Below, piece by piece: positions 8,551-12,881 of a DNA stretch of 64,000 nucleotides. This DNA is from Escherichia coli (GTDB lineage: Bacteria; Pseudomonadota; Gammaproteobacteria; Enterobacterales; Enterobacteriaceae): NCBI RefSeq assembly GCF_003334305.1, contig NZ_QOWS01000007.1; one strand, given 5' to 3'. The translations under genes and the position numbers were made by a program. The notes beneath the pieces were generated by a model. The model was not told where the DNA came from and made no database searches. It saw only the letters and a list, made by a program, of their open reading frames with translations. The stretch's first letter is position 1, and each line of letters begins with the position of its first letter.

Positions 8551-9729
8551 TTAACGTGTAATAGAGTACACGGTTCCGTCTTTTGCCTGGATCAGCAGTT
8601 TGCCGTCAGCGGCAACCGGTTCAGTCTGGAAACCGGAACTATCAACTTTTTGCTGGGCAACGAAACGACCATCTTCGACGTTAATCCAGTGCAGATAACC
8701 TTCACTGTCACCGACCACCAGGTTGCCATTATACAGCACCGGAGAAGTCAGCAGGCGATGCAGCAGATCGCTTTGTGTCCACAGCGTAACGCCGCCATCA
8801 ATGGTCAACGCCATCACCCTGTCATTTTGATCGACCAGATAGATGCGATTGCCGTCGACGATGAAATCATTCACCGAACCCAGTTCGCGTTTCCACATAA
8901 TCTGACCACTGCGCAGATCAAGCGCCGTCAGGTTACCATTATAGGCCAGCGCGAAAACAACGCCGTTAACAACGACGGGAGTCGTGTCAACATCGCTCAG
9001 ACGGTCAATTTCGGTAGAACCGGTCGCCTGGGAAATACGCTGCTGCCAAATCATCTGGCCCTGTTCCATCAGCACTGCGCTGACGCGACCATTATCGCCA
9101 CCCACGACGGCCGCACCAAAAGCCGTTGCCGGCGCAGACTCGCCACGCAAAGAGAGCGAAGGCATATCGAGGTTAACTGTCCATTTGACAGCGCCGTCAG
9201 CTTCGTTCAGCGCTTGTAACTGACCGTTACTGGTGTGGATTAACACCAGACCGTCGCTGACCACCGGGCGCGAAAGTGCTTCACCCGCGACTTTAGTTTG
9301 CCATGCCACAGTACCATCGCTGGTATTCAGCGCGTAAACCTGCGCCTTTTCGCTGCCAATGTAGACATGCCCACCAGACACGGTCACACCGCCAGAAAGT
9401 AATGCAGGCTCTTTAGAGAACCAGCCATCTTTCTCGGCCAGGCTGACAGACCAGATTTCTTTGCCATCATCCGCATTCAGCGCTTTTACCAAACCAGCGC
9501 GGTCCGCTGCATAGACAACGTTGTCCGCCAGTGCCGGATGAAGATTGGAATAGAAGTTGCCAATGCCGCTACCAACGGAAGTGCTCCACGCCGTGGTCGG
9601 CGTAAACTGGTTTTCAACGGTTGGCAATGGGGACATCTTTACCACATCTTCTTCGCTGTTAAACAGCGAACAGCCGCTTAAAAGGGTAACGGAAAGCAGT
9701 CCTGGCAGCAGTAATTTACGCAATTGCAT
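8551..9729 (-). CDS. bamB: outer-membrane protein assembly factor BamB, 392 aa
   Basis: Lipoprotein signal with LLSGC lipobox; beta-propeller-like repeats; length matches. Confidence 0.95.
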   Translation of the reverse strand: MQLRKLLLPGLLSVTLLSGCSLFNSEEDVVKMSPLPTVENQFTPTTAWSTSVGSGIGNFYSNLHPALADNVVYAADRAGLVKALNADDGKEIWSVSLAEKDGWFSKEPALLSGGVTVSGGHVYIGSEKAQVYALNTSDGTVAWQTKVAGEALSRPVVSDGLVLIHTSNGQLQALNEADGAVKWTVNLDMPSLSLRGESAPATAFGAAVVGGDNGRVSAVLMEQGQMIWQQRISQATGSTEIDRLSDVDTTPVVVNGVVFALAYNGNLTALDLRSGQIMWKRELGSVNDFIVDGNRIYLVDQNDRVMALTIDGGVTLWTQSDLLHRLLTSPVLYNGNLVVGDSEGYLHWINVEDGRFVAQQKVDSSGFQTEPVAADGKLLIQAKDGTVYSITR

Positions 9730-9739
9730 CGGGTCCCTC

Positions 9740-10360
9740 TCAGATGGACAAATTATTAATTTTCATCTGCATCATTTCGCTCAGTGCCGGAGTAACATCG
9801 CTTTTCACGCCTGCTTCCCATGCACTACGCGCACCTTGCTTATCACCTTTGCTCAGCAATGCTTCACCACGCAGGTCGGCAACAATGGCAGCCCACCCTT
9901 CACCTTTGATGGTATCAAGGGTTTTCAGCGCGGCATCAGCCTGCTTGAGCTGTACCTGAACGCGAGCAAGACGCAGATTTATCACGGCTTTGAGATTTTC
10001 ATCGCTCGTGTCTGCCAGCCCCTGTTGTAACTGGGCGGCAGCTTTCTCTAGTTCATTTTTGTCAACAAATTGCTGCGCAAGTTCCAAAGAAGCCAGCGCA
10101 CCATAAGTATTTTTATTTTCAGCAGCAAATTTTTCCGCCGCCGGGATGCTATCCGGTTTGCCTTCGCTCACTGCGGTAACCGCATTTTGATAGGCAAGAG
10201 AAGCGGAGCGTGCAGAATCAACCTGATGGCTGTTCCAGTAGCGCCAGCCAATCAGTGCGCCAACGCCCAAAATCACCCCAACAGCCAGTGCTTTGCCATT
10301 TTCAGCAAAAAAGCGTTTAACCGCTTCTACCTGGTCGTTTTCGTTCTCGTAAATTTCCAC
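9740..10360 (-). CDS. yfgM: YfgM, TPR-like inner-membrane anchored protein, 206 aa
   Basis: Single N-terminal TM segment (ALAVGVILGVGALIGW) then helical repeats; 10-nt gap to bamB. Confidence 0.9.
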   Translation of the reverse strand: MEIYENENDQVEAVKRFFAENGKALAVGVILGVGALIGWRYWNSHQVDSARSASLAYQNAVTAVSEGKPDSIPAAEKFAAENKNTYGALASLELAQQFVDKNELEKAAAQLQQGLADTSDENLKAVINLRLARVQVQLKQADAALKTLDTIKGEGWAAIVADLRGEALLSKGDKQGARSAWEAGVKSDVTPALSEMMQMKINNLSI

Positions 10361-10377: not shown

Positions 10378-11652
10378 TTAACCCAGTAACGTGCGCAAAT
10401 GCGCGGCTACGCTATCCTGCGCAACTGCCGTTTGCTCACCAGAGCGCAAATCCTTCACTACTGCTGTGCCGTTAGCCACTTCAGACTCACCCAGCACCAC
10501 AGCAACGCGGGCACCCCATTTATCAGCACGGGCAAACTGTTTCTTAAAGTTGCCGCCGCCGTGGTTGGTCATCAATTTCACGCCCTGTAATTCATCACGC
10601 AGACGCTCAGCTAATGCCATAGCCGCAGATTGTGTATCAGCACCTGAAGCCACCAGGTATATATCGACAACAGGATCGGCTTTAAATTCCGGATTAACGG
10701 CCTGTACTAACAATACAAGACGTTCGAGGCCCATCGCAAAACCGACAGCCGGTGTTGCACGACCGCCCAGTTGTTCCACAAGACCGTCATAACGACCGCC
10801 TGCACACACGGTGCCCTGGGAGCCGAGACTGTTAGTCACCCACTCGAAAACGGTACGGTTATAGTAATCCAGACCACGCACCAGACGCTGGTTTACGGTG
10901 TAAGCGATCCCCGCGCTCTCCAGCAGTTTGCACAGACCGGCAAAGTGCTCACGAGATTCCTCGTCCAGATAATCGCCTAATGCCGGAGCATCGTTGAGAA
11001 GCGCCTGCACTTCCGGATTTTTGGAATCCAGCACGCGCAGCGGGTTAGTGTACATGCGGCGTTTGCAGTCTTCGTCCAGCTTATCTTTATGCTGCTCAAG
11101 GAATGCCACCAGCGCATCGCGGTAATTGGCGCGTGCTTCCAGCGAACCGATAGAGTTCAGCTCAAGAGTTACGTGCTCGGAAATACCCAGCGCACGCCAC
11201 CAGCGGGCGGTGAGCATAATCAGTTCAGCGTCGATATCCGGACCTTGCAGACCGAAAACTTCGCAGCCCAACTGATGGAACTGACGATAACGCCCTTTCT
11301 GCGGACGCTCGTGACGGAACATCGGCCCGATATACCACAGACGCTGTTCCTGATTGTACAGAAGACCATGCTCAATGCCGGCGCGTACACAGCCCGCCGT
11401 CCCTTCAGGGCGCAGAGTCAGGCTGTCGCCATTGCGATCCTCAAAGGTGTACATCTCTTTTTCAACCACGTCGGTGACTTCACCAATCGCACGTTTGAAT
11501 AGCGGGGTCTGCTCTACAATCGGCAAGCGGATTTCACTGTAACCGTAGCTGCCGAGCACGTTTTTCAGTGTGCCTTCAATGCGCTGCCAGATGGCCGTTT
11601 CGCCAGGCAGGTAATCGTTCATGCCGCGAATGGCTTGAATGTTTTTTGCCAC
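10378..11652 (-). CDS. hisS: histidine--tRNA ligase, 424 aa
   Basis: Class II aaRS motifs; N-terminus [18 protein letters not shown]. Confidence 0.97.
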
Positions 11653-11659
11653 GTTTATT

Positions 11660-11755
11660 CTCTTTCTGAATATAAAAATGAACCCTCAACGCTTCCCTCA
11701 ATGTTTCGGGAGCTATGCGGGTTCAATCATACACGGGAAGCGAGGCGCTTCCCAT
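11660..11755 (-). ncRNA. sroE: candidate SroE sRNA (3'-UTR-derived from ispG) in the ispG-hisS spacer; boundaries approximate
   Basis: 110-bp spacer with hairpin gggaagcgcctcgcttccc downstream of ispG stop; sRNA placement is from memory. Confidence 0.4.
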
Positions 11756-11762
11756 CACGTTA

Positions 11763-12881
11763 TTATTTTTCAACCTGCTGAACGTCAATTCGACGCGCTT
11801 CGTCCAGCTGACTGGCTTTCGCACGAATGCGTGCTTCCAGCTGGTCGATCATATCGTTGTTGTCCAGACGGTCTTTGCGCACGCCATCTTCATAGAGGCC
11901 GCTTTTCTTGTTGCCGCCGGTGACGCCGAGTGTAGAAACCAGCGCCTCACCTGGGCCATTCACCACGCAGCCGATAATCGAAACGTCCATCGGAGTGATG
12001 ATATCTTCCAGGCGTTGCTCCAGCGCGTTAACCGTACCGATAACATCAAATTCCTGACGCGAACAGGTCGGGCAGGCGATGAAGTTGATCCCGCGCGAAC
12101 GGATACGCAGCGATTTCAAAATATCGAAACCGACTTTGATCTCTTCGACCGGATCGGCCGCCAGTGATACGCGCAGCGTGTCGCCGATGCCTTCAGACAG
12201 CAGCAGACCTAAACCAATGGCGGATTTTACTGCCCCGCTGCGTGCACCACCGGCTTCGGTGATCCCCAGATGCAGCGGCTGATCGATCTGTTTTGCCAGC
12301 AAACGATAAGACTCAACAGCGAGGAAGACGTCAGACGCTTTCACGCTGACTTTGAACTGATCGAAGTTCAGGCGATCGAGATGATCAACATGGCGCATGG
12401 CGGATTCCAGCAACGCCTGCGGCGTCGGTTCGCCATACTTTTCTTGCAGATCTTTTTCCAGCGATCCGGCGTTAACGCCAATACGGATCGGAATGTTTTT
12501 ATCGCGCGCACAGTCAACCACCATGCGAATACGCTCTTCATTACCGATATTGCCAGGGTTAATACGCAGACAATCGACGCCGTATTCCGCTACTTTCAGT
12601 GCAATGCGATAGTCGAAGTGGATGTCAGCCACCAGCGGCACGTTAACCTGCTGTTTGATGAGTTTGAACGCTTCTGCCGCGTCCATCGTCGGTACGGAGA
12701 CACGGACGATATCAGCGCCAACGCGTTCCAGCGCCTTGATTTGATTGACCGTTGCTTCGACGTCTGTCGTACGCGTATTGGTCATGGACTGTACGGCGAT
12801 GGGAGCACCATCGCCAATCGGCACATTCCCAACGTAAATACGTGTTGATTTTCTACGTTGAATTGGAGCCTGGTTATGCAT
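11763..12881 (-). CDS. ispG: 4-hydroxy-3-methylbut-2-enyl diphosphate synthase (IspG/GcpE), 372 aa
   Basis: Full-length ORF; C-terminal Cys cluster [10 protein letters not shown]...GCVVNGPGE. Confidence 0.97.

Follow-up and report, generated by a model that had tools for sequence, protein, structure and literature searches.

The spacer between ispG and hisS in Escherichia coli raises the question of why two essential genes should be separated by a conserved, structured RNA, and whether that RNA is itself a regulator or the trace of signals that control its neighbours. We addressed this question in a 64,000-nt stretch of E. coli DNA (the window), which is collinear with K-12 MG1655 and 99.3% identical to it across 8 kb. 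The genes at the locus and the RNA are all on the minus strand, a point on which the initial annotation was silent. The genes are the following:

14206-15360, minus strand: rlmN, far over the cut-off of its NCBIfam equivalog model
12908-13921, minus strand: rodZ, far over the cut-off of its NCBIfam equivalog model
11763..12881, minus strand: ispG (gcpE) coding sequence, an ORF matching NCBIfam NF001540 with 528 bits (cut-off 345), stop codon TAA at 11765..11763
10378..11652, minus strand: hisS coding sequence, an ORF with a GTG start at 11652..11650, matching TIGR00442 with 524 bits (cut-off 287)
9740-10360, minus strand: yfgM, named from the K-12 annotation rather than by an NCBIfam model
8551-9729, minus strand: bamB, far over the cut-off of its NCBIfam equivalog model

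The gene order rlmN-rodZ-ispG-hisS-yfgM-bamB(-der) agrees with the ispG-hisS-yfgM-bamB-der unit that had been proposed, but ispG-hisS is not a simple single transcription unit, as a transcription start site (TSS) at G11718 lies inside sroE. At the other end of the cluster, Term-seq data include an “orphan” 3′ end at the bamB-der junction (window position about 8499, minus strand; MG1655 2637422) with a hairpin and T-run sequence. A terminator thus also stands at this junction, and the cluster does not form a single unbroken unit.

The spacer occupies 11653..11762, exactly 110 nt, and is indeed structured. Its folding energy is -42.3 kcal/mol (z = -5.3), a value reached by none of 200 shuffled sequences. 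The hairpin singled out in the initial annotation, gggaagcgcctcgcttccc, is present on the minus strand at 11753..11735, with 8 bp, a 3-nt loop, and a folding energy of -12.4 kcal/mol that two of 200 shuffles equalled; a second, longer hairpin at 11725..11679, followed by U5, had been passed over. The claim that the spacer lacks an ORF is essentially right. The only ORFs that overlap it are mechanical ones extending into the flanking genes, and sense-strand mini-ORFs that start within it are at most 23 aa long or run out of frame into hisS.

Recognition of the spacer as SroE in the initial annotation was correct. The RNA can be placed as follows:

11672..11763, minus strand: SroE RNA (Rfam/K-12 definition, 92 nt), RF00371, corresponding to MG1655 b4761 at 2640595..2640686

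The RF00371 (sroE) match at 11763..11672 on the minus strand covers model positions 1-92 of 92 and scores 114.6 bits (E = 7e-28), where the gathering score is 51. In the MG1655 record, the curated ncRNA sroE (b4761) is at the equivalent position and shares 1 nt with the ispG stop codon. SroE in the window is identical to the K-12 RNA at 91 of 92 bases, with the single difference at 11714, and a 231-nt stretch around sroE is found in exactly one copy, always chromosomal, in each of the complete E. coli genomes searched (5426 of 5426). The SroE locus is already known, and it is a curated K-12 gene. Among the RefSeq E. coli records listed (for example NZ_AP018808.1 and NZ_CP074749.1), none of 10 has an sroE feature at this locus, and the curated K-12 record has one. 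Other structured RNAs in the window, all full length, are ryfA (RF00126; 24606-24910, plus strand; 317.9 bits, threshold 80), GlmY (RF00128; 61629-61776, minus strand; 147.1 bits), and the iscR stability element iscRS (RF01517; 32285-32394, minus strand; 138.1 bits).

What the RNA does is a separate matter from what it is, and the arrangement of elements within the spacer is informative here. From the ispG stop codon to the hisS start, the elements are:

11735..11753, minus strand: hairpin 1, GGGAAGCG-CCU-CGCUUCCC, beginning 9 nt past the ispG stop; fold -12.4 kcal/mol
11749..11754, minus strand: candidate -35 element TGGGAA of the hisS promoter (inferred), matching the consensus at 3 of 6 positions, within the 5′ arm of hairpin 1
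11726..11731, minus strand: candidate -10 element TATGAT, in the invariant linker GUGUAUGAUUGAACCC, 7 nt upstream of the published TSS
11718, minus strand: published TSS from 5′-triphosphate-enriched 5′RACE-seq, 66 nt upstream of the hisS GTG (Kim et al., 2012; PMC3415461)
11679..11725, minus strand: hairpin 2, with outer stem UGAACCC/GGGUUCA and a variable inner part; -22.4 kcal/mol, z = -5.0; terminator-like
11674..11678, minus strand: U5 run immediately downstream of hairpin 2, with the annotated 3′ end of SroE at 11672
11653..11665, minus strand: AAAGAGAAUAAAC block, the Shine-Dalgarno region before the hisS GUG start, near-invariant in the alignment of 22 Enterobacteriaceae-type spacers described below

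Hairpin 2 and U5 of E. coli have the G+C-rich stem and the U-run that characterize an intrinsic terminator. A consensus scanner called neither a promoter nor a terminator in the E. coli spacer, the loop being too long for the terminator scan. A REP element was also considered for hairpin 1 and rejected: in a window-level test allowing up to three mismatches, hairpin 1 is unique in the 64 kb, and the “REP” label that RepRanger gives to sroE appears to rest on palindromy.

Our reading rests on the position of this one published TSS relative to the two hairpins and on inference from the comparison among species. Kim et al. (2012; PMC3415461) mapped 5′ ends after removal of monophosphate RNAs with terminator exonuclease, and their Table S1 gives a start at U00096.2 2638663 (minus strand), labelled sroE, with a distance of 45. 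The accompanying 51-mer maps to window positions 11768..11718, so the start is G11718. A neighbouring TSS from the same study, 377 nt upstream of hisS, maps to 12029 (minus strand), inside the ispG coding sequence, as expected, which validates the coordinate conversion. Transcripts from this ispG-internal TSS would have to pass hairpin 2. The read count at G11718 is low (6), comparable to that of neighbouring TSSs (PMC3415461), and its distance of 7 nt from TATGAT falls within the 6-8 nt of sigma-70 promoters. The combination TGGGAA-17-TATGAT scores 8.1 bits with a position weight matrix (PWM) and fails the 9-of-12 rule of the consensus scanner. Processed 5′ ends that are structured can withstand the exonuclease, which is a caveat to this TSS. 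The RNA that begins at G11718 has only weak structure (z = -1.6), and SroE has strong structure (z = -5.7).

The 5′ end of SroE itself presents a different picture. Inspection of mapped 5′ ends, as the initial annotation had proposed, does recover the annotated SroE 5′ end, but only from the method without 5′-triphosphate enrichment (PMC3415461, Table S2), a pattern that fits processing; the enriched start is instead the one inside sroE. The same table flags the enriched-library signal as “upstream” of the sRNA, but its coordinates put G11718 inside sroE. The consensus scanner found no promoter-like site upstream of 11763, and one candidate there, TTGACG (11788-11783) with AATAAT (11767-11762), is not credible, with a 15-nt spacer and a -10 element overlapping the annotated 5′ end. 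The SMRT-Cappable-seq supplement has no entries for hisS, sroE, or ispG.

Mapping of RNA 3′ ends by Term-seq, another experimental check suggested for SroE, supplies the main evidence against our reading. The Adams 2021 tables available to us list no 3′ end at MG1655 2640580-2640619 for the hairpin 2 U-run, where the annotated SroE 3′ end (11672) is the one indication that transcripts stop. Those tables do list 3′ ends inside ispG and inside hisS. The ends within the hisS ORF are at window positions 11511 and 11360 (minus strand), 141 and 292 nt into the gene (MG1655 2640434 and 2640283), and the one at MG1655 2640283 has a very high Term-seq score. Given that no end is listed at the U-run, hairpin 2 may terminate only weakly, or RNAs with the SroE 3′ end may be rare, under the conditions of that study. 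The long loop of the E. coli hairpin and its U-run of only five may make termination there inefficient.

The missing 3′ end is also an argument for supposing that there is no functionally distinct RNA, and that “SroE” is an overlap of coverage from the ispG 3′-UTR and the hisS 5′-UTR or a transient decay intermediate, with structures that serve only as mRNA stabilisers. Bulk RNA-seq cannot tell SroE from ispG-hisS mRNA, and automatic RefSeq annotation omits the gene, both of which agree with such a reading. However, an early experimental sRNA screen catalogued a molecule quoted at about 90 nt (PMC3632133), the K-12 gene is curated, and a very stable hairpin marks each boundary of the RNA, 5′ and 3′, so that a discrete stable species would be expected. 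We consider the absence of a distinct RNA improbable.

Comparison among species indicates which parts of the spacer are held constant. The comparison drew on 80 species, each represented by one hisS locus and ranging from Escherichia to Vibrionaceae. In all 80, ispG is directly upstream of hisS on the same strand, with a spacer of 13 to 411 nt. The Rfam scan covered the first 60 sampled loci, leaving out L062-L081 (mostly Vibrionaceae, plus Gilliamella, Schmidhempelia, and one Yersinia); the sroE model was over threshold in 19 of these, all from Enterobacteriaceae, and had no above-threshold match in L042-L061. The hisS start codon GUG (window 11650-11652), usually following AAC or GAC, is kept in most of the 80 loci, E. 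coli and Vibrio alike, but Acerihabitans has AUG and one Vibrio has UUG, among other exceptions.

In an alignment of 22 Enterobacteriaceae-type spacers, the hairpin 1 arms, the linker, the 3′ arm GGGUUCA, the U-run, and the translation start region AAAGAGAAUAAAC-GUG are invariant or nearly so, and TATGAT lies within a 16-nt block that is invariant in all 22. TGGGAA-17-TATGAT, or a close variant with the same -10 element, is the best PWM site in almost every one of these spacers. The interior of hairpin 2 varies freely: it measures 33 nt in Escherichia and about 18 nt in Kluyvera and Pluralibacter, and loop length across species is 5-36 nt, or 156 nt with an insertion. Enterobacter has lost it down to a compact GAGCCCA-UUCUU-UGGGUUC followed by U6, which the scanner calls a terminator (E. 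cloacae). Despite this variable loop, the TATGAT element ends 1 nt before the 5′ arm of hairpin 2 in every one of the 22 spacers, and the U-run, U5-U8 in all, stays a constant 19-23 nt from the hisS start. Within E. coli, the most divergent allele has four differences, all of them inside hairpin 2 and confined to the inner loop.

Base pairing is well kept in both helices, with 96% of cells paired and two double-changed pairs in hairpin 1, and 98.6% of cells paired in the outer stem of hairpin 2 (22 species). Taken together, the two helices are 97% paired; two of their 15 pairs changed on both sides and nine never vary. A test of helix covariation has little power here because the arms are nearly invariant, and constraint on the RNA would be inseparable from constraint on the DNA when judged from sequence alone. 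Large insertions in the spacer (L006 2315-2501, L057 2260-2501, L055 2255-2501, and L076 2089-2501) fall within hairpin loops or between modules, not in stems; Pseudocitrobacter, for example, has its insertion in the loop of hairpin 1, and Klebsiella sp. BIGb0407 in that of hairpin 2. The L057 and L076 insertions have inverted segments in common. The ends of the inserts presumably resemble ERIC/IRU repeats.

This pattern bears on a rival reading of SroE, that of a trans-acting, chaperone-dependent sRNA derived from a 3′-UTR in the manner of CpxQ and SroC, which would pair with its targets through the linker or the upper part of hairpin 2. SroE has been grouped with sRNAs processed from longer transcripts (PMC8313858). 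Its terminator-like 3′ hairpin and U-run are conserved across Enterobacteriaceae, the invariant linker GUGUAUGAUU, part of which is accessible, could act as a seed, and nucleotides 38-53 are accessible in vivo according to the literature. One of ten predicted SroE targets, ligB, was bound in vitro, but weakly, and the other nine were not bound (PMC6172242). Association with Hfq, which the initial annotation had suggested looking for, receives a mixed answer: SroE is listed among Hfq-associated sRNAs in nitrogen-starved E. coli (PMC12539622), but it has no (ARN)x Hfq motif (PMC5575007), and its change of -1.75-fold in a Klebsiella hfq mutant is below the 3-fold threshold of that study (PMC3136514). 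Further arguments against action in trans are the short U-tail (U5 then AU), expression that is constitutive, with a level constant across nutrient conditions (PMC12266141), and overexpression without a biofilm phenotype (PMC4606813). The conservation pattern also argues against it, as every invariant block coincides with a putative promoter, terminator, or Shine-Dalgarno element, and the inner part of hairpin 2 is entirely deleted in Enterobacter. A trans-regulatory role of SroE is not established, and we regard it as unlikely.

A second proposal places the function of SroE in cis. Barquist et al. (2013; PMC3632133) found SroE to be required in Salmonella by TraDIS, noted its position upstream of the required gene hisS, and offered the hypothesis of a cis-acting, T-box-like hisS leader. 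In its general form, the spacer would be a riboregulator of hisS that senses tRNA-His or histidine, either T-box-like or as a hisL-type attenuator. The TraDIS result is in keeping with this proposal, as is an element with a terminator-like hairpin that always lies directly upstream of hisS. However, an Rfam scan of 11500-11900 at a permissive E <= 1 reports sroE alone and no T-box leader (RF00230), and mini-ORFs within the spacer have at most one His codon, none consecutive, contrary to a hisL-type leader peptide. Naville and Gautheret (2010) discuss hisS attenuators in Firmicutes, not the sroE element.

The one attenuator-like pairing that we could find was rejected. The motif GGGAAGCG is duplicated at 11753-11746 and 11697-11690, and either copy could pair with CGCUUCCC; the second copy is GGGUUAGCG in Citrobacter, is missing in Enterobacter, and reads GGGGCGCG in the divergent E. 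coli allele. The sole candidate for an alternative structure is thus absent in Citrobacter and destroyed within E. coli. The Enterobacter element, reduced to hairpin 1, linker, and bare terminator, has no room for a sensor, and the mapped TSS lies downstream of both hairpin 1 and the 5′ arm of hairpin 2. The T-box and leader-peptide models fail their defining tests, and a histidine- or tRNA-sensing leader is in our judgement highly improbable.

Spacers in other families of Enterobacterales have promoter-like sites of their own. Near-consensus TTGAAx-18-TATAAT is found in Rahnella, Serratia, Yersinia, Pectobacterium, Brenneria, Dickeya, Rouxiella, and Edwardsiella, with a score of 12.8 bits (PWM) and 10 of 12 in the consensus scanner; the Hafnia counterpart is TTGATG-17-CATAAT. 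A long-range stem, UGAACCCG(A)/(U)CGGGUUCA, encloses the promoter site in many of these species, with U5-U7 behind it. In these cases the -10 element touches the 3′ arm of the stem with its last base, and the predicted start is at or after that arm. Equivalent stems followed by U5-U7 in Rahnella and Pantoea have z-scores of -4.4 and -6.3. A script aligned Pantoea CCUGU/ACAGG with E. coli ACCC/GGGU; by eye, the difference looks like a compensatory exchange of C-G for U-A. The UUGAAC block itself forms the -35 element in Xenorhabdus, Photorhabdus, and Providencia, and we found no stem adjoining a U-run in the spacers of these three genera; Proteus has UUGAAU in that role.

Vibrionaceae spacers are short and unrelated. 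The element is wholly absent in L045 (2487-2501), L060 (2476-2501), L063, L073, and most Vibrio loci, and spacers without it include one of 13 nt in Pantoea sp. 1.19 and ones of 24-27 nt in Acerihabitans, Gilliamella, and Schmidhempelia. Where the element is absent, hisS is presumably co-transcribed with ispG. Across the families that have such sites, these comparisons suggest a recurring theme of a terminator-like stem with a nested hisS promoter whose transcripts would lack the complete stem. In Enterobacteriaceae the -10 element would stand before the 5′ arm. In Yersiniaceae, Pectobacteriaceae, and Hafniaceae, the putative -35 and -10 elements would both lie in the loop, touching the 3′ arm, and in Morganellaceae UUGAAC would serve as the -35 element.

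We think that the sroE locus probably acts mainly in cis, as a composite junction at which a terminator and a promoter lie between two essential genes, and that SroE is a by-product of it. Transcripts from ispG would carry both arms of hairpin 2 and U5, and some may end there by intrinsic termination or by trimming back to the hairpin. Loss of the upstream RNA as far as the ispG stop codon, by cleavage or decay, would then leave the 92-nt RNA, which could persist thanks to the stable hairpin at each end. SroE is most likely a stable 3′-UTR remnant of ispG mRNA. The same DNA would contain a sigma-70 promoter for hisS, with its -35 element in the 5′ arm of hairpin 1, its -10 element in the linker, and its start at G11718. 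This start is just past the 5′ arm of hairpin 2, so transcripts made from the promoter would lack that arm, would form no terminator, and would continue into hisS. Direct observation covers what the RNA is, its two hairpins, how its parts are conserved, and where the published TSS falls relative to the hairpins; termination at hairpin 2, the origin of the SroE 5′ end, and the escape of the promoter-derived transcript are what we infer from them.

A nested promoter would account for several results that are awkward for a regulatory RNA. Insertions in sroE would separate hisS from its promoter, which would explain the requirement seen by TraDIS, and the model would also explain the failure of the target search and conservation at the level of sequence rather than covariation. 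The initial annotation had proposed that processing in the spacer decouples expression along the operon. Decoupling of ispG from hisS is retained in our reading, but a terminator-like hairpin with an internal hisS promoter is a likelier cause than RNA processing alone. For the wider generalization, that a catalogued orphan sRNA is chiefly the by-product of a terminator with a nested promoter and that similar logic operates in two registers across Enterobacterales, we see about an even chance. The internal TSS in sroE was published but overlooked, and a cis role for SroE had been proposed earlier. If the nested arrangement is correct, the conserved sroE sequence is a junction that sets hisS expression independently of ispG, and it cautions that not every conserved, structured intergenic RNA is a trans-regulator.

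Comparison with known systems helps to place the locus. With respect to RF00371/b4761, the RNA in the window is alike in locus, strand, boundaries, and two-hairpin structure, with no difference at the level of identity; what may be added to the known family is that the conserved sroE columns appear to coincide with putative promoter and terminator elements of hisS. Like the processed 3′-UTR sRNAs CpxQ and SroC, SroE is at the 3′ end of an mRNA, right after the stop codon; its 3′ hairpin is terminator-like, and its 5′ end was probably produced by processing. Unlike them, SroE lacks a validated target, a clear dependence on Hfq, and a phenotype. The next gene, on the same strand, begins only 21 nt downstream, and the DNA that encodes the RNA contains a probable promoter. 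Gram-positive hisS T-box leaders and the hisL attenuator share with sroE a structured RNA with a terminator upstream of a histidine-related gene, but sroE has no T-box model match, no run of His codons, and no conserved antiterminator alternative. The rpsU-dnaG-rpoD operon has a junction made of an operon-internal terminator and an internal promoter. In junctions of this type, as proposed here for sroE, a partial terminator and a downstream promoter uncouple adjacent co-oriented genes. The sroE junction would differ from them in that its promoter is nested in the terminator hairpin, whose 5′ arm would be closely flanked by the -10 element upstream and the TSS downstream.
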